Shown: in pieces, positions 2,258-60,413 of the stretch
How the letters are laid out: each line of letters begins with the position of its first letter
Position numbering within the stretch: position 1 is the first letter of the stretch
Source: Candidatus Gastranaerophilales bacterium
Lineage (GTDB): Bacteria > Cyanobacteriota > Vampirovibrionia > Gastranaerophilales > Gastranaerophilaceae
Direction of reading: 5' to 3'
DNA length: 64,000 nt
NCBI GenBank assembly: GCA_944324305.1
Contig: CALUVV010000006.1
Location: 90,655-154,654, forward strand
Program-made: the position numbers and the translations under genes
Notes under the pieces: model-generated
What the model was told of the DNA's origin: nothing
Databases searched by the model: none
Seen by the model: only the letters and a program-made list of their open reading frames with translations

Positions 2258-2261
2258 TAAT

Positions 2262-2918
2262 TTATTTTTGAATCATTTCATAATTTAAAGTATTGCCTAT
2301 TATAGCATCATAGAAGTCGCCTTGAAATTGAATAAATTTTTCAGGTTTTACAATAAAAGAAAAAGTGTCCGCACCATATTGGTTCGGGCCTTTTTCTCCA
2401 TTGGTGTCGAAAAATATTAGTCCGCATTGATTACTATAATTATAAATTGGATTCCCATCTGCATCAGTTGTTCCTGAATCAAATTTAGACAGACAATTCC
2501 CACCGACATTTCGTGTGTTATAAGAATTTATAGCAATAGTTGAACCGTCTACAAGTATAGCTTTTGCCATAGCATGTGAACTGTAAAAGGTGTAACTTTC
2601 CTCTGAATTTTTTTGTGGTTTGGTTTCTTTTGCCCAACATCCTGTTTTAGTCCCACAATTTTGTGTCACTTGTATATACCTTGTCAAATCATTTAATATT
2701 TGTTCGCTTGAATTTTCAAAAATTCCTGAATAGTCACTATATCCGGATTCAGCCTTTAACATATTAAAGGCGTTTGAGATTAAAGAGAAAGTTCTTTTTG
2801 ATTGATTAAGTAATACTTTATCTTTGTATTTACCTACTAAAGCAGGCATTGTCAGAGCAGCAACTATTCCTATAATCCCGAGAGTTATAAGAACTTCTGC
2901 AAGGGTAAAACCATACAA
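2262..2918 (-). CDS. type IV prepilin-like protein (locus L1); body ORF, true start probably ATG 3013 after a frame change in the C-run
   Basis: N-terminus YG|FTLAEVLITLGIIGIVAALTMP is a prepilin cleavage/methylation motif. The ORF-track start is a TTG only 2 codons before the cleavage site. Confidence 0.85.
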   Translation of the reverse strand: MYGFTLAEVLITLGIIGIVAALTMPALVGKYKDKVLLNQSKRTFSLISNAFNMLKAESGYSDYSGIFENSSEQILNDLTRYIQVTQNCGTKTGCWAKETKPQKNSEESYTFYSSHAMAKAILVDGSTIAINSYNTRNVGGNCLSKFDSGTTDADGNPIYNYSNQCGLIFFDTNGEKGPNQYGADTFSFIVKPEKFIQFQGDFYDAIIGNTLNYEMIQK

Positions 2919-2945
2919 ACACCTGCTAGTTTTCTTAAAAGCCTT

Positions 2946-2973
2946 GATATGGCGGGTTAAGCGGCTGCGCTTG
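2946..2973 (-). repeat. GC-rich hairpin motif copy (AAGCG-CAGC-CGCTT followed by AACCCGCCATATC) inside the L1 leader
   Basis: Stem 2959-2963 pairs with 2968-2972. About 24 of 30 nt are identical to 59531-59562, and it is similar to 41222-41243. Confidence 0.6.
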
Positions 2974-2975
2974 CC

Positions 2976-2985
2976 GGGGGGGGGG
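2976..2985 (-). repeat. homopolymer C10 on the coding strand (G10 as given) in the L1 leader; putative slipped-strand phase switch
   Basis: Counted 10 G at 2976-2985. ATG 3013-3011 with GGAGG at 3019-3023. ATG-to-pilin-frame offset is 95 nt (mod 3 = 2). Confidence 0.65.
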
Positions 2986-3031
2986 CAATTCTAAATGCTT
3001 TGATATCAATCATTTTTACCTCCTTAATTTT

Positions 3032-5609: not shown

Positions 5610-6377
5610 TTAATAAGTCATTCTCCAGCCGTCTTCCATAATTCTGGCGGCACAACCGTCACCGCTGACATTTTCCGGAGCATCTTTAAGAATGCCTTCT
5701 CCTGCACAAAGAGAAGCATTTGTTCTCCAGTAATTACTTCCTGATGCACTTCCGTATAAAGCTTTTGCGTAATCGGCACCGTACATTGGGTATAAATGAC
5801 CGTTTTGTGCAACTATAAATTTAAATAAATCGCGTCCGTATTGATTTGGAGCACGAAGGCTGTTAACATCCATCGTAACTTCGGCGCATAGATTTTTTAT
5901 AGTGCTGAGATTAGGATTTGCAACGTCGTTACAGCCTTTTGGCACTACAAGATACATTGCGCCGTCGGGTGTCATAAATTTAAATCCTTCCGTGGATCGC
6001 CAGTCTACATCTTCTGCCAAAGTCGTATTTTTCGGTTTAAGAGGGGCAGAATTCAATCCCGGCATCATAGCTGTACCGTTTTTGGCTATTTTAATAATTT
6101 TTATGGATTTTGTAATTTCTTTTTCAAACTTATCGTTCCAGGCGGCATCTGTAACACTTCCGTCAAACGCTCCAGCACAGACAATATCTGTACATTCGTG
6201 TCTTACCATAATATTTTGCATTGCCTGTTCAAATTGGCTCAGAGATTTTTCAAGCTGTGAAACATAAACTTTAACTTTATAATTTGAAATAAGACCTGGC
6301 ATAGTTAACGCTGCAACTACGCCTATTATTGAAATAGTTAATAAAACTTCTGATAATGTAAAGGCTTTTTTTATCAA
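5610..6377 (-). CDS. type IV prepilin-like protein (L2), no G/C tract
   Basis: MIKKA|FTLSEVLLTISIIGVVAALTMP. TTG start with GGAG 8 nt upstream. C-terminus ...DGWRMTY is related to the WEMTY family. Confidence 0.85.
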   Translation of the reverse strand: MIKKAFTLSEVLLTISIIGVVAALTMPGLISNYKVKVYVSQLEKSLSQFEQAMQNIMVRHECTDIVCAGAFDGSVTDAAWNDKFEKEITKSIKIIKIAKNGTAMMPGLNSAPLKPKNTTLAEDVDWRSTEGFKFMTPDGAMYLVVPKGCNDVANPNLSTIKNLCAEVTMDVNSLRAPNQYGRDLFKFIVAQNGHLYPMYGADYAKALYGSASGSNYWRTNASLCAGEGILKDAPENVSGDGCAARIMEDGWRMTY

Positions 6378-8058: not shown

Positions 8059-8754
8059 TTATTTATCTCCCGCTTCATCTTGTTCTTTTAATGTAGTGAC
8101 ACCTGAAGCTACACCGCCTGATGCTCCTACAAAATTAACAGTAGCTTTTTCGTAGGTTTCTTTTTTTACGCCTTTAATTTTATCCATTATATGATTAAAG
8201 CCTTTTTTAATTGTGGTAAAGATATTTTTGATACCTTTTCCTATTGCTTTAAAGAATTTCGAAATCGGAGAACCGATTTTTGTTTTCGAGAATTTTTTCA
8301 AAGCGTTTGCAGGCATAGTGTATGCTTCCGAGGCTTTGAATTTAGTTTTAACGGTTCTTGCAGAATCAATAATAAAACTGTTTGTAGCTTTAATATGTTT
8401 TTTGAAACTCTGAACAGGAGCTGATTTTGCAATTTTAGACATAGCCTGGATTGATTTTTTGGCTCCCCAGCCTGTAGCCATACCGCCCAACAAACCCGTA
8501 GTAACGACAGCACCGCCTTTAATCATTGTTTGAGCGGGTTTAGGCAGCTTTATTTCATCGTTATCAAGAATTTCTTTTAAATCTTCTTTTTGTTCAAGTA
8601 ATTCCTGTCTTGTTTCATTATATTTTTTTTCTTCAAGTTCTTCCGGTGTTAACTTGCGTGTCTGTTTTTTTTGAGCACCGAACGCAGGACCGTAATTGTT
8701 AGAAAGTTTAGGCTGTATTGATAACATATGTGTCTCCGTTAAAAAATTTTTCAA
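8059..8754 (-). CDS. hypothetical Lys-rich protein with a Gly-rich hydrophobic segment
   Basis: 231-aa ORF containing GGAVVTTGLLGGMATGWGAKK. No family recognised. Confidence 0.5.
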   Translation of the reverse strand: MKNFLTETHMLSIQPKLSNNYGPAFGAQKKQTRKLTPEELEEKKYNETRQELLEQKEDLKEILDNDEIKLPKPAQTMIKGGAVVTTGLLGGMATGWGAKKSIQAMSKIAKSAPVQSFKKHIKATNSFIIDSARTVKTKFKASEAYTMPANALKKFSKTKIGSPISKFFKAIGKGIKNIFTTIKKGFNHIMDKIKGVKKETYEKATVNFVGASGGVASGVTTLKEQDEAGDK

Positions 8755-8864: not shown

Positions 8865-9791
8865 TTATTTGTAAATAAATTTACTGCCCTGATGTGAAGA
8901 CCTTTTAATAAATTCTCTGTCGATTTTGTTAAGGCAGTCAAATTTTTTGCCGAGCCATTGCGGCGCAATTAATTCTGAGCTTAAACCGTTGCCTGCAAGA
9001 CGGTGAATAGTTATAGTTTCGGGAAGATATTCGAGAAAGTCGCAGACTGTTTGAACGTATTCGTCTTCGTTCATAAATTCAATTCCGCCGCTTTCGTATA
9101 TTTGCGCAAGTTTTGTATTTTTCAGGGCGCATAACATGTGGATTTTAACCCCGTCAACTTCCAGTTCTGCAAGTTTTTTTGCAGTTTCCATAATCTCGTC
9201 ATGCGTTTCCCATAGACCGAAAATAACATGGACACATACGTTTATGCCTGCGGATTTTGTTTTTTCATAAGCCTTTAAAAAGCATTCAAAATCATGACCG
9301 CGGTTAATTTTTTTTAATGTTTTGTTATGAACGGATTGAAGCCCGTATTCCACCCATGTGTAATAGTCATCTTTAAATCCTGATATAAGTTTAATTTTTT
9401 CATCATCTATGCAATCAGGGCGTGTACCTATGGAAATTCCAACAATATCTTCGTGATTGAGCGCGGAATTGTATATTTTTTCCAATTCTTTAGCAGGTTT
9501 GTAGGTATTTGAATAAGCCTGAAAATATGACATAAATTTTTCGGCTTTAAAGCGTTTTTTTAGGCTTTCCGCTCCGCTTATAACCTGTTCTTCCACTGAC
9601 AGGAGATTTGAATGAGCTTGGGAGAAGCTTCCGCCTTCGTCGCAGAAAATACAGCCGCCTGTCGAAATTGTGCCGTCGCGGTTAGGGCATGAAAAACCGG
9701 CATCAAGTGTTATTTTATAAACCTTAACGCCGAATTTATTTTTCAAATGAGCGCTGAATTGATTATAGCGCTTATCGGTATTATTAAACAT
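8865..9791 (-). CDS. radical SAM protein, TIGR01212 family
   Basis: N-terminal ITLDAGFSCPNRDG...GGCIFCDEGG cluster motif typical of the TIGR01212/YhcC family. Confidence 0.85.
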   Translation of the reverse strand: MFNNTDKRYNQFSAHLKNKFGVKVYKITLDAGFSCPNRDGTISTGGCIFCDEGGSFSQAHSNLLSVEEQVISGAESLKKRFKAEKFMSYFQAYSNTYKPAKELEKIYNSALNHEDIVGISIGTRPDCIDDEKIKLISGFKDDYYTWVEYGLQSVHNKTLKKINRGHDFECFLKAYEKTKSAGINVCVHVIFGLWETHDEIMETAKKLAELEVDGVKIHMLCALKNTKLAQIYESGGIEFMNEDEYVQTVCDFLEYLPETITIHRLAGNGLSSELIAPQWLGKKFDCLNKIDREFIKRSSHQGSKFIYK

Positions 9792-9793
9792 AA

Positions 9794-11672: not shown

Positions 11673-11903
11673 ATGTATTTAATAGAGCTGGTTGTTAAAT
11701 TATTTTCAAGAAAAAAGAAAGTTGAAGAGGTTTCATTTGATCCTTTTGCACAGGATAATCTTGAAACCTCTGAAGATTGTAAACATATCTTTCTGCCTGT
11801 GGACAGCACCGGAGAAATTCTTGCATGTTCAAAATGCGGGCTTGTCGTAAACAAAAAAGATTTAAGAGATATTAATATATTTAAAAGAAACTCTAAAATC
11901 TGA
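11673..11903 (+). CDS. small hypothetical protein, possible Cys-containing ribbon
   Basis: ATG 3 nt after the cdd stop. The CKH...CSKCG spacing is only weak support. Confidence 0.35.
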   Translation: MYLIELVVKLFSRKKKVEEVSFDPFAQDNLETSEDCKHIFLPVDSTGEILACSKCGLVVNKKDLRDINIFKRNSKI

Positions 11904-12522
11904 GAGGATAATCTTTCGGTATTTGCCAGCCCTCATATTGAATAAGTTTAGCGCAAAATGCATGATATTCTTCCGCGCAGCCATATTTGTTACCGTTTTT
12001 TAATAGTTTTTCACGTGTGCCGTCCCAACTATATGTGTATGGTTCAAATGTTGGTTTTACTGTATACTTATTAACGCTTTCTTCCTGCCCTGTTACTAAT
12101 ACGGGATTAAAACGAAATGCAAAATGATTTACTCCGGCTTTCTTATTTAGTAAAGCTTTTTTATTAACATAAAACCCCATATCGTATATGTAATTTGTAA
12201 CTTCAAGTATTCCGCCGTCATTTAAATAAATACGGAAAACATCTTTATCCTTCTCTAAAGATGCTATCTGTAAGTGTTTCCCTATATATGTATTAAACCA
12301 TACTATTGTTTCATCTGTGCTGCAAGTTGAAGAGCCGGATTGCCCACAGTCCATTGCCCATGATTCAACATCTCCGTATTCGGCAACAGAAGCATTAATA
12401 GCCTGGTTCATCACAGAATAAACCTTTTTTAATTTCGTAACAACTTCTTGTTTTTTGTGATTGGCAATTAATGCGGGCATTGTTAAAGAAGCAACAACAC
12501 CGATAATACCGAGAGTAATCAA
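11893..12522 (-). CDS. type IV prepilin-like protein (L3); body ORF lacking its own processing motif
   Basis: The ORF-track TTG start falls inside the ...A|FTLAEV LITLGIIGVVASLTMP helix. The FTLAE codons lie just upstream at 12540-12526. Confidence 0.8.
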   Translation of the reverse strand: MITLGIIGVVASLTMPALIANHKKQEVVTKLKKVYSVMNQAINASVAEYGDVESWAMDCGQSGSSTCSTDETIVWFNTYIGKHLQIASLEKDKDVFRIYLNDGGILEVTNYIYDMGFYVNKKALLNKKAGVNHFAFRFNPVLVTGQEESVNKYTVKPTFEPYTYSWDGTREKLLKNGNKYGCAEEYHAFCAKLIQYEGWQIPKDYPLRF

Positions 12523-12753
12523 TACCTCAGCCAGAGTAAAAGCGGTTGAGCGGCTAAGATGATAAGCGGCTAAGTTAAAATGACGAAAACGACTTAACTT
12601 CTTAGCTGCTTCGTCTCCCGGCTGCTTGTTAACGTGCGTAAAATCTCTGACAGAGCCAGAAAAAGTTTCACGAAAGTCGTGTTGCGGGGCTACGTGCGTA
12701 GCACCTTCAGCTAATGTAAATCCCTTTAACCCCTTCTGCCAAGCGACCTTTGC

Positions 12754-12763
12754 GGGGGGGGGG
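12754..12763 (-). repeat. homopolymer C10 on the coding strand (G10 as given) in the L3 leader; putative phase switch
   Basis: Counted 10 G. ATG 12791-12789 preceded by a GGAGG RBS. Offset to the pilin frame is 269 nt (mod 3 = 2). Confidence 0.65.
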
Positions 12764-12811
12764 CAACCCTTAACGCTTTGAAATTAAACATTTCAACCTC
12801 CTTTTTTTCTT

Positions 12812-17966: not shown

Positions 17967-18022
17967 AAAAAAGGATATATATATTTTGAAAGGAGCTAGT
18001 TATGAAAAGATTTAACAATGTC

Positions 18023-18032
18023 GGGGGGGGGG
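18023..18032 (+). repeat. homopolymer G10 in the L4 upstream leader module
   Basis: ATG 18002 (MKRFNNV) followed by G10. Offset to ATG 18133 is 131 nt (mod 3 = 2). Confidence 0.65.
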
Positions 18033-18086
18033 CGTTTTAGGGCTTTTTCCTTGTTATTTTAGGGGTTGTAAAAAAAATCAAAACTG

Positions 18087-18119
18087 TTATAATAGTGATA
18101 TAGCGCATCACTATTATAA
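18087..18119 (+). promoter_or_regulatory. 13-bp perfect palindrome TTATAATAGTGAT-N7-ATCACTATTATAA (operator-like or hairpin); each arm holds a TATAAT box
   Basis: Arms at 18087-18099 and 18107-18119 are exact reverse complements. TGTTATAAT lies at 18085-18093. Confidence 0.5.
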
Positions 18120-18132
18120 TGAGGTTTTAAAT

Positions 18133-18783
18133 ATGAAAAAGGCATTTACGTTAGCAGAAGTTTTGGTCACTTTAGGTATTATTGGTGTAGTGTCTGCAAT
18201 GACTGTACCTTCTTTGATGCAAAATCACCAGAGAAAAACTTATGTTACACAGTTACATAAAATATATAACGAGTTACAGCAGGCAAGCCTGCAATATATG
18301 ACCGACAATAATGCAATTAATATGAAAGAAGCGGGGATAATCAGCGATGATGCAGCTTCCGATTTTATAAAAAAGTATTTTAAAGTTGTGCAGGATTGCG
18401 GTGCAGATAAATCTCCCTGTTTCCCCGAACACACTGTATACAAAAAGTTGTCAGGAGCTGAAAATAGCGTCTGGGTTGGGAAACGTCATTTTGTTCTGGC
18501 AAGCGGAGCTTCCGTTTCTACATATTATCATCCGGAAGATGAATTGCTTCTTGAATTTTGGGTAGATATAAACGGACAAAACGGACCTAATATAATAGGC
18601 AGAGATTTGTTCGGGATGTATATGTCTGTAGACGGTGTTCTTGATGATTTAGCTTATAAATTTCCTTTATCAAAAGAAGAAAGAGAAAATAAATTTAATA
18701 CAGTCTGTAACGCCACTAACCAAGGAAACTTACATGGCTGTTTCGGTAAAATTCTTAACGATAACTGGGAAATGACGTATTAG
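18133..18783 (+). CDS. type IV prepilin-like protein (L4), WEMTY family, with its own ATG
   Basis: MKKA|FTLAEVLVTLGIIGVVSAMTVPSLMQNHQRK. GAGG RBS at 18121-18124. C-terminus CFGKILNDNWEMTY. Confidence 0.88.
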   Translation: MKKAFTLAEVLVTLGIIGVVSAMTVPSLMQNHQRKTYVTQLHKIYNELQQASLQYMTDNNAINMKEAGIISDDAASDFIKKYFKVVQDCGADKSPCFPEHTVYKKLSGAENSVWVGKRHFVLASGASVSTYYHPEDELLLEFWVDINGQNGPNIIGRDLFGMYMSVDGVLDDLAYKFPLSKEERENKFNTVCNATNQGNLHGCFGKILNDNWEMTY

Positions 18784-21020: not shown

Positions 21021-21956
21021 ATGGAAGAATTTACTCATTATACGGTTATGAAAAACGAAGCCGTTGACGCGCTGGAATGCAAATCAGGCAAAATATACGT
21101 TGATTGTACTCTTGGCGGCGGCGGGCACAGCGGCTTAATCTTAAGCCGTATTCAGCCTGACGGAAAACTGATTGCTTTTGATGTCGACGAGGACGCAATT
21201 AAGGCGGCTTCTGAACGTCTAAAAGATTACAATAACTTAACAATAGTTAAAAATTCTTATACTAATATTAAAAAAGTTTTACATGAACTCGGTATTCAAA
21301 AAATCACGGGCGGTGTACTGTTTGACCTCGGAGCATCATATCACCAGTTCCATAAAGGCGAAAGAGGTTTTTCGTTTTCAAAAGAAGCCCCGCTTGACAT
21401 GAGATTTAATCAAGATGCGGATTTTTCGGCTTATGATGTTGTTAATACTTACTCCGAACAGGATTTGGTCAGAATTTTCTCTGAATACGGTGAAGAAAGA
21501 TTTTCAAAAAGAATTGCAAAAAAAATTGTTGAACAAAGAAACGTGAAAAAACTTGAAACAACTACGGAATTGGCTGATTTGATAGTAAACTGCACCCCTC
21601 ATGTAAAATCATCAATTCACCCTGCAACACGTGTTTTTCAGGCAATTCGCATAGAAGTAAACCAAGAGTTAACAAATGTAAAAAATACTCTGAACGATGT
21701 GTTGGATTTGCTCGACTTTGGTGCTATAATAAGTGTAATAAGTTTTCACTCGTTAGAGGATAGGTTAGTGAAACACTTATTCAAGTATCACTCGCAGAGG
21801 TGCCATTGTGATAAATCGCAGATGATATGCCACTGTCCGCCTCCGATACTGGAATTGGTTAATAAAAAACCGATTACTGCGGGTGATGAGGAGATAAAAA
21901 TTAATCCTCCGTCGAGAAGTGCCAAACTTAGAATAGCAAGATGCATAAGGCACTGA
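21021..21956 (+). CDS. rsmH: 16S rRNA (cytosine1402-N4)-methyltransferase
   Basis: MraW motifs (HYTVM, VDCTLGGGGHS, FDLGASYHQF). I prefer the internal ATG 21021 to ORF-track 20904, whose extension overlaps the promoter and hairpins. Confidence 0.9.
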   Translation: MEEFTHYTVMKNEAVDALECKSGKIYVDCTLGGGGHSGLILSRIQPDGKLIAFDVDEDAIKAASERLKDYNNLTIVKNSYTNIKKVLHELGIQKITGGVLFDLGASYHQFHKGERGFSFSKEAPLDMRFNQDADFSAYDVVNTYSEQDLVRIFSEYGEERFSKRIAKKIVEQRNVKKLETTTELADLIVNCTPHVKSSIHPATRVFQAIRIEVNQELTNVKNTLNDVLDLLDFGAIISVISFHSLEDRLVKHLFKYHSQRCHCDKSQMICHCPPPILELVNKKPITAGDEEIKINPPSRSAKLRIARCIRH

Positions 21957-24240: not shown

Positions 24241-25056
24241 TTACGGCTTAAACCCGGAAACTTTAGCCGCAATTTCCCTGTAATCAGGCAGTTTATCCAT
24301 AGTTAAAATATACAATGACGGTGATGCGCCGTCCCCTATATTCGGAAACATATTTGCGTCGTCGCATCCGCCCTGAAGATAACTTTCCATAGAGCATAAT
24401 CCCTTTGTAACCTGAGCAGGAAAAGTATTGCTTATGAAAGGAAAAATATCTTTTTGAGTAGATATACATATATTTGTTAACTCTTCTGAAATATCTCCGC
24501 ATCCGACGGTAAACGTGTGAACATCTTTGCCAAATCTGTTGGGACCTTTTCTGCCGTTTGTATCAACAAGCACCTTAAAAGCATTCGCATCAACATCGAC
24601 ATTTAATACCATGCCGTCAGGCAGTGCATAAAAACAACCTATTCCTGTTCTGTTAACCATTCCATAGCCGTTTGAAACCTGATCTCCGTAATAGTTATAA
24701 CTCACATCAGGAACCCAGCTTCCTGCAGAAGCCCCGTCAGGAGCCATTTCTACATATTTCATTTTTTTAGCGACTTCGGCAAATGCGTCGCAGTTATTGT
24801 CACCATAGCCCATGCCTTCTATACAGGTCGCAATATCTATCCCTTCGCATCCCTGATCGGCCTTAAACATAATAATGGCGTTGGAAAAATTGGAATATAA
24901 TTTTTTAAACGCAACAACATATTGTTTGTTATTATGCTCATTGACAAGCGAAGGCAGCGTCATCGCCGCGACAACACCTATAATCCCGAGAGTTATAAGA
25001 ACTTCCGCAAGAGTGAATGCCGATATTTTTTTTATAAAGTAATTTTTGAACACCAT
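24241..25056 (-). CDS. type IV prepilin-like protein (L5), no G/C tract
   Basis: MVFKNYFIKKISA|FTLAEVLITLGIIGVVAAMTLPSL with an intact ATG and leader. Confidence 0.85.
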   Translation of the reverse strand: MVFKNYFIKKISAFTLAEVLITLGIIGVVAAMTLPSLVNEHNNKQYVVAFKKLYSNFSNAIIMFKADQGCEGIDIATCIEGMGYGDNNCDAFAEVAKKMKYVEMAPDGASAGSWVPDVSYNYYGDQVSNGYGMVNRTGIGCFYALPDGMVLNVDVDANAFKVLVDTNGRKGPNRFGKDVHTFTVGCGDISEELTNICISTQKDIFPFISNTFPAQVTKGLCSMESYLQGGCDDANMFPNIGDGASPSLYILTMDKLPDYREIAAKVSGFKP

Positions 25057-31345: not shown

Positions 31346-31374
31346 TTGAAAAATGACTTAAAATTTATTATAAT
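31346..31374 (+). promoter_or_regulatory. near-consensus sigma70 promoter for the L6 leader (TTGAAA-N17-TATAAT)
   Basis: -35 at 31346-31351, -10 at 31369-31374, 35 nt before ATG 31410. Confidence 0.55.
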
Positions 31375-31430
31375 AATTATGGTTAATAATTTTATGAAAG
31401 GAGCTAGTTATGAAAAGATTTAATAATGTC

Positions 31431-31440
31431 GGGGGGGGGG
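31431..31440 (+). repeat. homopolymer G10 in the L6 leader; putative phase switch
   Basis: ATG 31410 (MKRFNNV), G10, then TAG at 31446. Offset to the pilin frame is 74 nt (mod 3 = 2). Confidence 0.7.
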
Positions 31441-31483
31441 CACTTTAGCAGCTCCTAAACCTGCTTTTACGCTTGCAGAAGTA

Positions 31484-32140
31484 TTGGTAACATTAGGTAT
31501 CATCGGTGTAGTATCTGCCATGACCGTACCGACTTTGATGCAAAATCATCAAAGAAAAACTTATGTAACTCAGTTGCATAAAGTTTATAATGAAGTTCAG
31601 CAAGCGGCTTTACAGTATATTACTGAACATAATGCTGTAAACCTTAGAGAAGCAGGTATTAACAGTGATGAGGCCGCAGCAGATTTTGTTAAACAATATT
31701 TTAAAGTTGTGCAAGATTGTGGTACTGACCAAACTCCTTGTTTCCCTGCTACAGAGACATATAAAAAACTTTCAGGAACAACTATTACAAATTGGTTTGG
31801 GAAACGTCATTTTGTATTGGCTGATGGAGTTTCTTTAGCAACATATTATGTATCTTCAGCGTCTCAAGTAATAGAATTTTGGGTTGATATTAACGGGCAA
31901 AAAGGGCCTAATATTGTAGGTAGAGATTTGTTTGTTATGTATATGTATAATAATGGAATATTAGATGAGCTGGCTGGAAAGAGTAGTGCTGATGATGATA
32001 GTGAGGTGGCTGCTAATATTCCAATGTCATCAGAGCAAAGAGAAAAAAGGTTTAATAATTATTGTATGTCTGATAGTCCTGTGAATTACCACGGCTGTTT
32101 CGGAAAGCTTCTTAATGACAATTGGGAAATGACATATTGA
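31484..32140 (+). CDS. type IV prepilin-like protein (L6), WEMTY family; body ORF, processing motif lies upstream and out of frame with the ATG
   Basis: The ORF-track TTG start is inside the helix (VTLGIIGVVSAMTVPTLMQNHQRK). PA|FTLAEV is encoded at 31460-31483. Confidence 0.85.
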   Translation: MVTLGIIGVVSAMTVPTLMQNHQRKTYVTQLHKVYNEVQQAALQYITEHNAVNLREAGINSDEAAADFVKQYFKVVQDCGTDQTPCFPATETYKKLSGTTITNWFGKRHFVLADGVSLATYYVSSASQVIEFWVDINGQKGPNIVGRDLFVMYMYNNGILDELAGKSSADDDSEVAANIPMSSEQREKRFNNYCMSDSPVNYHGCFGKLLNDNWEMTY

Positions 32141-32165
32141 TAAATTAAAAAAAATAGTCTATAAT
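32137..32165 (+). promoter_or_regulatory. sigma70-like promoter for the L7 leader (TTGATA-N17-TATAAT), embedded in the L6 stop codon and terminator
   Basis: -35 at 32137-32142 overlaps the L6 TGA. -10 at 32160-32165 lies in the hairpin. Confidence 0.45.
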
Positions 32166-32185
32166 TACTATAGACTATTTTTTAC
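32146..32185 (+). terminator. AT-rich terminator hairpin after L6
   Basis: AATAGTCTATA-ATTAC-TATAGACTATT (32153-32179), flanked by an A-run and a T-run. Confidence 0.5.
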
Positions 32186-32221
32186 GAAAGGAGCACAAAA
32201 TGACAGAATTTCAAACAATTC

Positions 32222-32231
32222 GGGGGGGGGG
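32222..32231 (+). repeat. homopolymer G10 in the L7 leader; putative phase switch
   Basis: ATG 32200 (MTEFQTIR), G10, then TAG at 32239. Offset 74 nt (mod 3 = 2). Confidence 0.7.
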
Positions 32232-32273
32232 CGTAATCTAGGCTCAGCTCCTGCTTTTACGCTTGCGGAAGTA

Positions 32274-32927
32274 TTGGTAACATTAGGTATCATCGGTGTG
32301 GTTTCTGCCATGACGGTACCGTCTTTGATGCAAAATCATCAGAGAAAAACTTATGTAACTCAGCTGCATAAAGTTTATAATCAGGCTCAACAAGCGCTGC
32401 TTCAATATCAGACCGATAAAAATGCCGTTGATTTGAATGAAGCAGGATTGGGTAATACAGCTTCTCAAGTTGAATTTATAAAAACTTATTTTAAAGTTAT
32501 TCAGGATTGCGGAACAGATCCGTCACCATGTTTTAGTGATAATTATAAAAAACTTTCAGGAACATCAGTAACTGCCGGAGGTGCAGAACATTTCTTTGTT
32601 CTTGCTGATGGTTCAGCAATCGCTACAAATGCTTTTTCAAATAACCAAACCAGAAATTTAGTAATGGAAATTTGGGTTGACACAAACGGGGCAAAAGGTC
32701 CTAATATAGTAGGCAGAGATTTTTTTATTATGTATGCTTACAAAAACGGTGTTATAGATGATATTAATTTTGAGGAACAGAATGGCGAGAATAATGCAAT
32801 TGTAAATGTTCCTTTGGAGCCTGACTACAGAGAGCGTATGTTTAATACATACTGTAAAGGAAGCGGAGGACAGCTGAGAGGTTGTTTTGGTAAAATTCTT
32901 AATGACAACTGGGAAATGACTTATTAA
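32274..32927 (+). CDS. type IV prepilin-like protein (L7), WEMTY family; body ORF
   Basis: Same N-terminal block as L4/L6/L8. PA|FTLAEV is encoded at 32250-32273. C-terminus CFGKILNDNWEMTY. Confidence 0.85.
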   Translation: MVTLGIIGVVSAMTVPSLMQNHQRKTYVTQLHKVYNQAQQALLQYQTDKNAVDLNEAGLGNTASQVEFIKTYFKVIQDCGTDPSPCFSDNYKKLSGTSVTAGGAEHFFVLADGSAIATNAFSNNQTRNLVMEIWVDTNGAKGPNIVGRDFFIMYAYKNGVIDDINFEEQNGENNAIVNVPLEPDYRERMFNTYCKGSGGQLRGCFGKILNDNWEMTY

Positions 32928-38944: not shown

Positions 38945-38996
38945 TATTATGTATATACACGAAAGGAGGACAAAATGACAGAATTTCAAACAATTC

Positions 38997-39006
38997 GGGG
39001 GGGGGG
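38997..39006 (+). repeat. homopolymer G10 in the L8 leader; putative phase switch
   Basis: ATG 38975 (MTEFQTIR), G10, then TAG. Offset to 39049 is 74 nt (mod 3 = 2). Confidence 0.7.
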
Positions 39007-39048
39007 CGTAATCTAGGCTCAGCTCCTGCTTTTACGCTTGCAGAAGTA

Positions 39049-39669
39049 TTGGTAACATTAGGTATCATCGGTGTGGTTTCTGCAATGACGGTACCGTCTT
39101 TGATGCAAAATCATCAGAGAAAAACCTATGTAACCCAATTGCATAAGGTCTATAATGAACTTTCTCAAGGTTTAATCCGTTATCAGACAGATAGAAATGC
39201 ACTTAATCTGACAGAAGCCGGACTAAGTGTAGATACCTTTTCTGATTTCCTAAAAAGTTACTTTAAAGTAGTTCAGGATTGCGACAATGAACAAACACCT
39301 TGTTTTGCGGATTCTTACAAGAAAATTGCAGGTGTTGCGACTTTATTTAAATGTGATGGAGCCTGCATGGTTCTTGCAAATGGTGCAGCTATAGGAGTTT
39401 ATAAAGCCAGCGCGGGATATACAAATATGATTGCAGAGATAGTGGTTGATATTAATGGGCAGCAGGGACCTAATATTTTTGGCAGAGATGCTTTTGCTTT
39501 ATTTTTGTACAAAGACGGAACTATAGATGATTACTCTACGTCAGGTGTTATCCCTATGACTGAAGAACTGAGAGAACAACGTTATCAGGCAGCATGTATA
39601 GACAACAGTAATAAGTGGGATGGCTGCTTTGGTAAAATCTTAAATGATAACTGGGAAATGACATATTAA
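39049..39669 (+). CDS. type IV prepilin-like protein (L8), WEMTY family; body ORF
   Basis: Same N-terminal block and the CFGKILNDNWEMTY C-terminus. The processing motif is encoded upstream of the TTG. Confidence 0.85.
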   Translation: MVTLGIIGVVSAMTVPSLMQNHQRKTYVTQLHKVYNELSQGLIRYQTDRNALNLTEAGLSVDTFSDFLKSYFKVVQDCDNEQTPCFADSYKKIAGVATLFKCDGACMVLANGAAIGVYKASAGYTNMIAEIVVDINGQQGPNIFGRDAFALFLYKDGTIDDYSTSGVIPMTEELREQRYQAACIDNSNKWDGCFGKILNDNWEMTY

Positions 39670-41221: not shown

Positions 41222-41243
41222 GGAGCGCAGCCGCTCCACCCGC
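41222..41243 (+). repeat. GC-rich hairpin motif copy (GGAGCG-CAGC-CGCTCC-ACCCGC), intergenic between flgG and flgB
   Basis: Stem 41222-41227 pairs with 41232-41237. Same core and tail as 2946-2973 and 59535-59557, with swapped outer base pairs. Confidence 0.6.
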
Positions 41244-41285
41244 AGCAGGAAGTTTAAAAAACTTCTAAAGTAGAAAGGTTTAATA

Positions 41286-59534: not shown

Positions 59535-59557
59535 CCAGCGTAGCCGCTGGACCCGCC
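59535..59557 (+). repeat. GC-rich hairpin motif copy (CCAGCG-TAGC-CGCTGG-ACCCGCC) upstream of the L9 leader
   Basis: Stem 59535-59540 pairs with 59545-59550. The flanks match the L1 leader motif. It is preceded by a duplicated RBS block (59521-59533 equals 59590-59602). Confidence 0.6.
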
Positions 59558-59631
59558 ATATCTGGTGTTGTATAATTTTATTGAAAATTATGGAAAGGAG
59601 CAATTATGAAAAGATTAAAACTTAAAACGTC

Positions 59632-59642
59632 GGGGGGGGGGG
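59632..59642 (+). repeat. homopolymer G11 in the L9 leader; putative phase switch
   Basis: ATG 59606 (MKRLKLKTS), G11, then TGA at 59663. Offset to GTG 59685 is 79 nt (mod 3 = 1), so G10 or G13 would fuse the frames. Confidence 0.7.
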
Positions 59643-59684
59643 TTAAGCACTCTATTATGTCTTGAAAGTTCATTCAAAACATTC

Positions 59685-60413
59685 GTGTCGGGTCAAGCGG
59701 CACGCTTGGGTTTTACTTTAGCAGAGGTATTGTTAACTTTAGGGATTATCGGTGTTGTTTGCGCCCTGACTTTGCCGTCTTTGATTGCAAATCATAAAGA
59801 AAAGGAAACTGTAACAAGATTAAAAAAAGCCTATTCAACTTTATCTAATGCCTACACAGGTGTATTAAACGAATATGGTTCGCCCCCTGATTGGAATGTC
59901 GAAAGTTGGGACGATGTTGTAGTAATGTTTTCAAAATATATTCAAAATGTACGTGTTTGTACTTTGATGCAAGGCGGATGTTTTTTCTCTGAAGTAAGAA
60001 AGGATTTGAGGAATAATAAGGTTGACCAGATGGCTTCTATGTCTTCTCTGGTAATGAGTGACGGTATTGTTATGGGTATCGGACATCAGATAGGTGTGGA
60101 ACAGGCATTACCCTGTGAAAATTTAAATTATTGTTTTCAATTTGAAGTTGATATAAACGGTGATAAACGTCCAAATCGTTGGGGCGAAGATACATTTACT
60201 TTTGTTGTCACAAAAGATAAAGTAATTCCGCGTGGAGGGAAAGATACTCATGGCAGACAGAAAATGTGTGATCCTTCTGCTTCTTCAACTTCAGCCGGCT
60301 GGTATAACGGGTCAGGATGCGCAGCATGGGTTATACAATCGGAAAATTTAGATTATCTTAAATGTGTAAAAGGTAATCAGAAATATTGTAATAAAGATTA
60401 TTATTTTAATTAA
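59685..60413 (+). CDS. type IV prepilin-like protein (L9)
   Basis: ...QAARLG|FTLAEVLLTLGIIGVVCALTLPSLIANHKEKE. The ORF-track start is a GTG with no RBS. The natural start appears to be ATG 59606. Confidence 0.85.
   Translation: MSGQAARLGFTLAEVLLTLGIIGVVCALTLPSLIANHKEKETVTRLKKAYSTLSNAYTGVLNEYGSPPDWNVESWDDVVVMFSKYIQNVRVCTLMQGGCFFSEVRKDLRNNKVDQMASMSSLVMSDGIVMGIGHQIGVEQALPCENLNYCFQFEVDINGDKRPNRWGEDTFTFVVTKDKVIPRGGKDTHGRQKMCDPSASSTSAGWYNGSGCAAWVIQSENLDYLKCVKGNQKYCNKDYYFN

Follow-up and report, generated by a model that had tools for sequence, protein, structure and literature searches.

Poly-G/C tracts in the leaders of pilin-like genes of Gastranaerophilales: a probable case of translational phase variation, mostly OFF in consensus assemblies

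In Neisseria, a poly-G tract in the signal-peptide coding region of pilC switches the gene ON and OFF by frameshifting through slipped-strand mispairing, and in Campylobacter and Helicobacter the modal length of such tracts is about 9-10 nucleotides (nt). Phase variation is defined by mixed tract lengths within one sample. The closest precedent for the genes described here are the sortase-pilus genes of Bifidobacterium breve UCC2003, in which a G-tract separates the open reading frame (ORF) of the signal peptide from the pilin body. The two are out of frame in the reference, replication slippage switches the tract, and its in-frame length is enriched in vivo (PMC9187656). We analyzed 64,000 nt of DNA, hereafter the window, from Candidatus Gastranaerophilales bacterium (GenBank assembly GCA_944324305.1, contig CALUVV010000006.1, positions 90,655 to 154,654), with a composition of 35% G+C. 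Seven genes of the window that encode type-IV-pilin-like proteins carry a run of ten or eleven G/C in their leaders, out of frame with the start codon, which probably reflects phase variation at the level of translation through slipped-strand mispairing, with the OFF state prevailing in the population consensus.

As in Neisseria, the runs are situated in the 5' secretion-signal region of pilus-associated genes and several independent loci are present in one genome. Unlike here, PilC is a pilus tip or assembly protein and not a family of pilin paralogues, the major pilin of Neisseria is varied by pilE/pilS gene conversion and not by tracts, and isolates differ widely in tract length and ON state. 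Campylobacter and Helicobacter also have AT-rich, host-associated genomes whose long G/C runs are all tracts of 8-13 nt; dozens are present in each genome, chiefly in genes for surface structures (PMC6321876, PMC8355987). Their targets are mostly glycosyltransferases, genes of flagellar or capsule modification and restriction-modification genes, with tracts at varied positions in the ORF, whereas here a stereotyped 5' module of Shine-Dalgarno (SD) sequence, ATG, 7-9 codons and C-G10-C heads one family and is OFF in nearly all consensus sequences. B. breve, like the present organism, is a gut commensal with an intragenic G-tract (10-12 nt in B. breve) just after the secretion-signal part, with signal and body in two frames; its in-frame minority arises by replication slippage, and equivalent tracts are conserved across the genus Bifidobacterium. 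Its pilins differ in being Sec/LPXTG sortase pilins of an actinobacterium, with one or two loci per genome, while the genes described here from sequence have a class III leader, type-IV-pilin-like products and a tract of nearly uniform length (G10), and comprise seven loci within 64 kb and hundreds throughout one order of the cyanobacterial phylum. The proposed mechanism is of a known kind; what is new is the lineage, the class III leader of a large pilin-like family as its target, the reused 5' module and the consensus-OFF design. No paper in the literature searched connected phase variation, poly-G or pilin terms with either Melainabacteria or Gastranaerophilales; a preliminary description of this DNA had likewise known of no such system in the lineage.

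Exactly seven G/C runs of at least 7 nt are present in the window, six G10 and one G11 (Table 1), and the next longest is a G6 within tRNA-Leu. The number of runs of at least 10 nt expected from base composition is about 0.002 for G and 0.001 for C, or some 0.003 in total. Loci are named below by the first nucleotide of their run. Translation of all frames revealed an ATG with a strong SD sequence 7-9 codons before each run, in a frame that terminates 2-8 codons past it, and a pilin frame that is open back through the run and onward into (G/A)-FTLAEVL(V/I/L)TLGIIG... The two frames are offset by 2 mod 3, except at 59632, where the offset is 1 mod 3; one added base at the six other loci, and one lost at 59632, fuses the leader to the prepilin. 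Near-consensus -35/N17/-10 promoters were found by our own scan upstream of five loci (12754, 18023, 31431, 32222 and 38997), together with a weaker candidate, TGGACC/TATAAT, at 59632. The two genes on the minus strand, in which the sense strand reads C10, belong to a different leader family, M..KA(F/L)R(I/V)APPP. In total the window contains nine pilin-like genes of the FTL(A/S)EV type, two of them without a run, and ORFs are intact at all loci and species examined. The preliminary description had already given the positions and lengths of the runs, the improbability of even a single G10, the start codons, early stops and frame relations, the count of nine prepilin-like genes with seven runs and the six promoters, and our analysis agrees with it on all of these.

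A scaffold-gap artefact was suspected because all seven runs read as G on the plus strand and six of them are exactly 10 nt, a common scaffold-gap length. Independent contigs carrying the same genes were fetched via neighboring housekeeping genes, including Logan contigs, which are built from 31-mers with no scaffolding, and tract lengths here and below were read from consensus assemblies and contigs. The 2976 tract was C10 in six of seven independent contigs, the 12754 tract was C10 in all six contigs that reach it (L001 and the five Logan contigs L003-L007), and the 31431 and 38997 tracts were G10 in four further samples and in one (L099), respectively; together with 59632 (below), these were the loci compared across samples, and 32222 is without an independent copy. 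In the seventh contig with the 2976 locus, L003, positions 9785-9793 read C7TC, an interrupted tract of 9 nt which is still out of frame with the ATG and could be either a locked variant or an assembly error. The window is also 100% identical to an ENA scaffold (ERZ28614680 scaffold_29) over 34.7 kb. Conversion of N to G in a gap of ten N was rejected, since the tracts recur in the Logan k-mer contigs, in several ENA studies and in many unrelated assemblies from many species. Contig breaks near the tracts were likewise rejected as a sign of heterogeneity: the ends match the last 31-mer unique to a paralogue or the shared FTLAEVLVTLG repeat, and are thus explained by 31-mers common to paralogues.

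Purifying selection acts on the pilin frames. When the 31431 pilin is compared with its counterparts from two other species, which are likewise G10 and out of frame, the synonymous divergence (dS) exceeds 1.3 and the ratio of nonsynonymous to synonymous divergence (dN/dS) is 0.11-0.13; among paralogues dN/dS is 0.2-0.35, which gives an overall range of 0.11-0.35 with dS above 1, i.e. with saturated synonymous sites. In-frame fused leaders occur naturally in database proteins (P0082, MKRFSYVGGGGNRLSSYCKA-FTLAEV; P0103, MRKISYVGGGTLKAPA-FTLAEV; P0037, P0092 and P0085) and at other loci (L023, L026 and L082; also L150 and L180). Since dN/dS is low and such fusions exist, the product under selection is the fusion of ATG, leader and pilin, and plain pseudogenes are excluded.

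Changes of tract length were found between near-identical genomes at two loci. A sister scaffold carries G10 at 59632 as the sole difference in 7.6 kb, which puts the gene in frame to encode a prepilin of 268 amino acids. Over 3.1 kb, sample SAMEA6814451 (L104) matches the window without a difference, G11 included, while L096/SAMEA6814454 (L105), BRZ_C (L106) and SAMEA6814600 (L107) have the in-frame G10; one G is the sole difference between L104 and L105, and L106 additionally shows eight substitutions past the end of the pilin gene. An exact match to the in-frame protein of 59632 was present on 7 contigs in a collection of 15 billion proteins, and the out-of-frame gene call on 11. The statement of the preliminary description that every locus is out of frame therefore stands for this assembly and fails for the organism, as a sister assembly of the same strain is in frame at 59632. 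The second polymorphic case was obtained by grouping all fetched tracts on identical 30-nt flanks. In the two human-gut samples concerned, ERZ779758 and UONZ01, the copies L126 (G10) and L180 (G11, in frame and with a full prepilin) differ by one gap and 0 mismatches in 3,045 nt. The remaining 17 flank groups with more than one source were uniform in length.

On the scale of the order, two partly overlapping sets were examined, some of whose genomes come from the same assemblies: loci from one genome per GTDB species, and 72 MKRF-type leaders with a pilin frame from metagenome contigs. In the species-genome loci, 37/89 pilin genes have a G/C run of at least 6 nt within 330 nt upstream. Length and frame were tabulated for the 35 tract-bearing loci with an assignable SD-ATG and pilin frame: at run length 10, 22 need +1, three are in frame and none needs -1; at 11 the numbers are one, two and two, at 12 none, one and two, and at 9 one, none and one. 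The MKRF-type leaders comprise 6 G9, 64 G10 and 2 G11, with an in-frame length of 11 in 72/72. Across the order, the common state is thus G10, one base short of frame. The comparison of run lengths in relatives which the preliminary description had proposed as a check gave lengths of 9-12 and a G10/G11 change at two loci, and neither fixed lengths with decaying frames nor assembly error, which it had named as refutations, were found.

The lineage is Gastranaerophilales, similar to Candidatus Stercorousia, as the earlier assignment to a Melainabacteria-like genome had implied. Gastranaerophilales are related to cyanobacteria but do not photosynthesize. With an alignment of the window pilins as query, a scan of one genome per GTDB species gave 577 relatives, and the best 80 of the 577 were nearly all labelled Gastranaerophilales, Melainabacteria or mislabelled 'Clostridium/Brachyspira sp. 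CAG' bins. The cluster includes a protein assigned by name to Candidatus Stercorousia, and the NCBI name 'type II secretion system protein' is also found in it. Searching for related proteins yielded 3,647 homologues at E < 1e-5, many of them annotated beforehand with PF07963 (N_methyl), which scores 16-23 bits on the window proteins; two of these exceed the cutoff of 21.2, and the others fall just short. The class III prepilin motif, F2 T3 L4 A5 E6 and the hydrophobic stretch, is invariant among eight paralogues. An AlphaFold2 model (predicted local distance difference test score, pLDDT, 86) has an N-terminal helix of 52 residues followed by five strands, a modeled layout that would fit a pilin. 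A structural match to solved pilins was sought by Foldseek in the PDB and nothing significant was obtained, the best pilin hits being C. difficile PilA1 and PilW at E of about 2-3. Gastranaerophilales were reported to encode pilA, pilB, pilC, pilT and pilD (PMC5877343); no prepilin peptidase or assembly ATPase was seen within the window, and no dedicated test of the genome was made.

The prepilin motif, the purifying selection, the in-frame fusions and the one-base differences at two loci support the proposal of the preliminary description that these are contingency loci acting on the translation of pilins. Each locus would be a complete expression unit, consisting of a promoter, a strong SD sequence, an ATG, 7-9 leader codons, G10 or C10, the remainder of the leader and a type-IV-pilin-like protein. 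The tract would act as a hypermutable simple-sequence repeat in which replication slippage adds or removes one G:C pair and so moves the pilin body into or out of the frame of the ATG, with ON and OFF set at translation. With 10 as the commonest length and 11 as the ON length at most loci, most cells would be OFF for a given pilin and a minority ON, a consensus assembly would read 'all OFF', and many paralogues per genome would produce cell-to-cell variation in the pilin-like surface proteins that are made. Such a model of mostly 10 and a minority of 11 reconciles purifying selection with the consensus-OFF state and predicts occasional G9, G11 and G12 consensus states, as observed. The anatomy of the loci, its conservation, the selection on the pilin frame, the ON forms and the one-base tract differences between otherwise identical genomes are observations; from them we infer a slippage mechanism, a switching rate and a mixed state within populations, with escape from antibodies or phages, or altered adhesion, as possible biological roles. 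At 59632 the consensus is often G11, which is OFF there, whereas at other loci G11 is ON and hardly ever the consensus; this contrast suggests that in most cells the ON state is selected against.

Several observations weigh against phase variation. Apart from the C7TC of L003, no length change was detected in intact copies of 2976, 12754, 31431 and 38997. In an exact look-up of 15 constructed ON proteins, which is blind to strains differing by one residue, neither the C11/G11 products of 2976, 12754, 31431, 32222 and 38997 nor those of ten loci from other species were present in the 15-billion-protein collection, while OFF gene calls of two window loci were found there on 19 (31431) and 22 contigs. 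The absence of exact ON proteins limits how often the ON state reaches consensus; for 31431 no full-length relative exceeding 75% identity came up in a homology search. The tracts are strikingly constant in length, exactly 10 in 64/72 MKRF-type leaders and 25/35 species-genome loci, +1 is what 64/64 and 22/25 of these need, respectively, and consensus ON is rare (2/72 MKRF-type leaders). The bases adjacent to the tract are conserved as well, C-G10-C in G-type and G-C10-G in C-type leaders (leaders in L016-L097), which simple slippage does not require.

If phase variation is nevertheless the explanation, as we consider likely, a poly-G/C switch is carried by more than a third of a pilin-like family (37/89 sampled; more than 3,600 members detected) in uncultured members of human and animal gut communities whose interaction with the host is little known. 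It would imply programmed cell-to-cell variation of surface fibres, a strategy known mainly from mucosal pathogens and recently from Bifidobacterium. Gene callers truncate or mis-start these genes, with the consequence that the pilin repertoires of the lineage are systematically mis-annotated, and consensus metagenome-assembled genomes conceal the expressed state. The near-universal state of G10 needing +1 also offers a case in which heritable DNA slippage could be told apart from transcriptional slippage.

The latter belongs to the alternative that survives best, programmed recoding, which we regard as unlikely. G10/C10 would here be a selected signal of fixed length across Gastranaerophilales, at which RNA polymerase slips and adds one G or C, or the ribosome shifts by -1 on GGG_GGG_GGG or CCC_CCC_CCC; most pilin paralogues would be permanently one base out of frame, each with a low, set and non-heritable expression, and changes in DNA length would be occasional mutations and not a means of control. 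This would be in accordance with an out-of-frame layout conserved over species with saturated synonymous sites and with the near absence of consensus G11 forms, and a precedent reportedly exists in insect endosymbionts, where conserved poly(A)-tract frameshifts are rescued by transcriptional slippage. To our knowledge, productive transcriptional slippage is documented mainly for A/T runs, which argues against it here. The need for exactly +1 in all G10 MKRF-type leaders would suit a single direction of slip, but the G9 loci (6/72) and the G11 loci needing -1 would not. In length the tract corresponds to the RNA-DNA hybrid of 9-10 bp given for slippage (PMC5009743), and the described cases, T. 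thermophilus dnaX, Shigella spa13/mxiE and insertion sequence (IS) elements (PMC5009743), share with the present loci a homopolymer of about hybrid length and an out-of-frame layout conserved over long evolutionary time. They differ in being A/T runs, whereas here the length of the DNA itself changes, with identical flanks at two loci, and in-frame and out-of-frame tracts coexist. In-frame G10 occurs at the same leader position in the sister assemblies at 59632, in L023, L054 and L057 and in a non-pilin gene of 659 amino acids, where slippage would be pointless or harmful. The zero-frame stop is 2-8 codons away and not adjacent to the shift site, and RNAalifold on 25 leaders gave 0 consensus pairs around the tract, that is, no conserved stimulatory structure. 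Lengths of 9-12 across species together with in-frame G10 tracts are the reason why a switch fits better than a recoding signal, although recoding and DNA slippage could act together. If recoding were true, these genes would form the first large family whose expression depends on productive slippage at G/C runs, and changes of DNA length would be a secondary layer.

Improbable, in our opinion, is that the tract primarily marks a portable 5' expression module and a recombination junction, with exchange of leader-tract cassettes or pilin bodies and length switching as a secondary matter. In L004 and L007 the 2976 locus bears a different, unrelated pilin of 194 amino acids behind an identical promoter, leader and C10, and the replaced segment (window 2258-2975 against 9804-10504 of L004, and in L007) begins exactly at the tract and ends a few bases beyond the stop codon; such sharp mosaic borders are expected at any gene with diversifying selection and homogenised flanks. 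Between window positions 59536-59658 and L097 5334-5388 the whole leader module (promoter, SD sequence, ATG and tract) differs while the flanks are 93-99.7% identical, P0082 and P0103 have a common mature pilin with leaders that differ after the tract, loci 18023 and 31431 are 82% identical up to the tract and divergent beyond it, and the same module heads a non-pilin gene. These are few examples, no recombinase or defined site was identified, and the conserved length and frame relation would be left unexplained. Illumina chemistry is known to have trouble at G-tracts (PMC9187656), but to an artefact of assembly or sequencing, such as gap filling or poly-G read tails, or to frameshifted pseudogenes we give almost no credence, as the recurrence of the tracts in independent assemblies and the purifying selection on intact ORFs largely refute both.

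Table 1. Coordinates of the G/C tracts and pilin-like genes of the window, and predicted peptides.
Feature	Position	Remarks
G10 tract	2976-2985	C10 on sense strand, gene (-)
G10 tract	12754-12763	C10 on sense strand, gene (-)
G10 tract	18023-18032	gene (+)
G10 tract	31431-31440	gene (+)
G10 tract	32222-32231	gene (+)
G10 tract	38997-39006	gene (+)
G11 tract	59632-59642	gene (+); G10 in sister assemblies
Pilin-like gene, C-type leader	2262..3013 (-)	ATG 3013, G-FTLAEV from 2912, stop 2262; C10 out of frame, C11 in frame
Pilin-like gene without tract	5610..6374 (-)	FTLSEV type
Pilin-like gene, C-type leader	11893..12791 (-)	ATG 12791, C10 12754-12763, stop 11893; in frame at C11
Long-leader locus	18002..18783 (+)	ATG 18002, G10, short ORF ends after GGGAF
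Pilin-like gene without tract	24241..25056 (-)	MVFKNYFIKKIS-AFTLAEV; labelled constitutive paralogue
Pilin-like gene	31410..32140 (+)	TTGAAA-N17-TATAAT, SD, ATG 31410 (MKRFNNV), A-FTLAEV 31463, stop 32140; in frame at G11
Pilin-like gene	32200..32927 (+)	TTGATA-N17-TATAAT, ATG 32200 (MTEFQTIR), A-FTLAEV 32253, stop 32927; in frame at G11
Pilin-like gene, paralogue of 32200	38975..39669 (+)	ATG 38975, A-FTLAEV 39028, stop 39669; in frame at G11
Pilin-like gene	59606..60413 (+)	ATG 59606 (MKRLKLKTS), G-FTLAEV 59709, stop 60413; in frame at G10; tract polymorphic between samples
Predicted junction peptide of fused product, example		...NNVGGGGTLAAPKPA
Predicted short peptides of the loci		MKRFNNVGGGAL, MTEFQTIRGGGVI

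Two of the loci depart from the simple layout. At 18023 the pilin frame is open from the run into the pilin, and G11 would give a leader of 47 amino acids; an internal TTGTAA-N17-TATAAT promoter-like stretch is followed by an SD sequence and the pilin's own ATG at 18133 (MKKA-FTLAEV). Because of this SD sequence and ATG, translation of the 18023 pilin is independent of the run, and the earlier claim that the pilin frames lack a start of their own does not hold there. Comparable long leaders (window 18033-18135; L027, L028, L029, L033, L057, L059, L082 and L088) have about 40 open codons across a conserved TTG(T/C)AA-N17-TATAAT promoter-like stretch, which reads ...CYNSD... when translated; this suggests a dual promoter or else a conserved long leader peptide. 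The gene at 12754 contains a first GFTLAE-GATHV copy (12723), an insert of about 180 nt and then the real A-FTLAEVL (12543), and the C-terminus of its product matches Pfam DUF6613. The FTLAE duplication is also present in L031, L039, L043 (two loci), L054, L056 and L077, where the layout consists of (G/A)FTLAE, a DNA 17-mer conserved between species (GAAGGTGCTACGCACGT, which encodes EGATHV), a spacer varying from 30 to 180 nt and the real FTLAEVL. It looks like the scar or the target of an insertion or recombination event within the prepilin leader.

At 18023 and 31431 a second ATG is located within AATGTCGGG (AATGTC before the tract; 18017-18022 and 31425-31430) and stands in the pilin frame at G9 or G12, giving MSGGG...; with this ATG taken into account, the two loci are fully OFF only at G10 and G13, and database proteins beginning with MSGGG... 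are called from it. In 15/37 G-type leaders the motif GCTCC(T), complementary to the SD sequence, is found 10-20 nt past the tract, against a background of 2%, and in two reading frames. A hairpin of SD and anti-SD enclosing the tract was dropped, as RNAalifold gave no consensus helix, and GCTCC(T) remains an unexplained motif. The tract lies on the G-rich strand in 34/43 cases by local GC skew, a figure confounded by coding-strand bias, the C-type loci being split 7:5.

The non-pilin ORF of 659 amino acids (MVDKTPQVGGGAPLSGQQF...) begins just past the 3' end of the window (about 64,550-64,590) with the same module, i.e. an SD sequence, an ATG, 7 codons and gtcG10c, and in the two strains L096 and L097 its G10 is in frame (reverse strand; the run, at 8169/8170, follows the ATG by about 24 nt). 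The tract module is therefore not confined to pilins. In the window, an older SD sequence (ATGGAAAGGAGCAGC) remains upstream of the leader module of 59632. A GC-rich 16-mer (AGCCGCTTAACCCGCC-like) has five copies in the window against 0.15 expected, at 2951-2966 (-), 21120-21135 (-), 41229-41244 (+), 59542-59557 (+) and 59687-59702 (-), of which those at 59542 and 59687 make up an inverted repeat of 13 nt on either side of the whole promoter-SD-ATG-G11 module of 59632.

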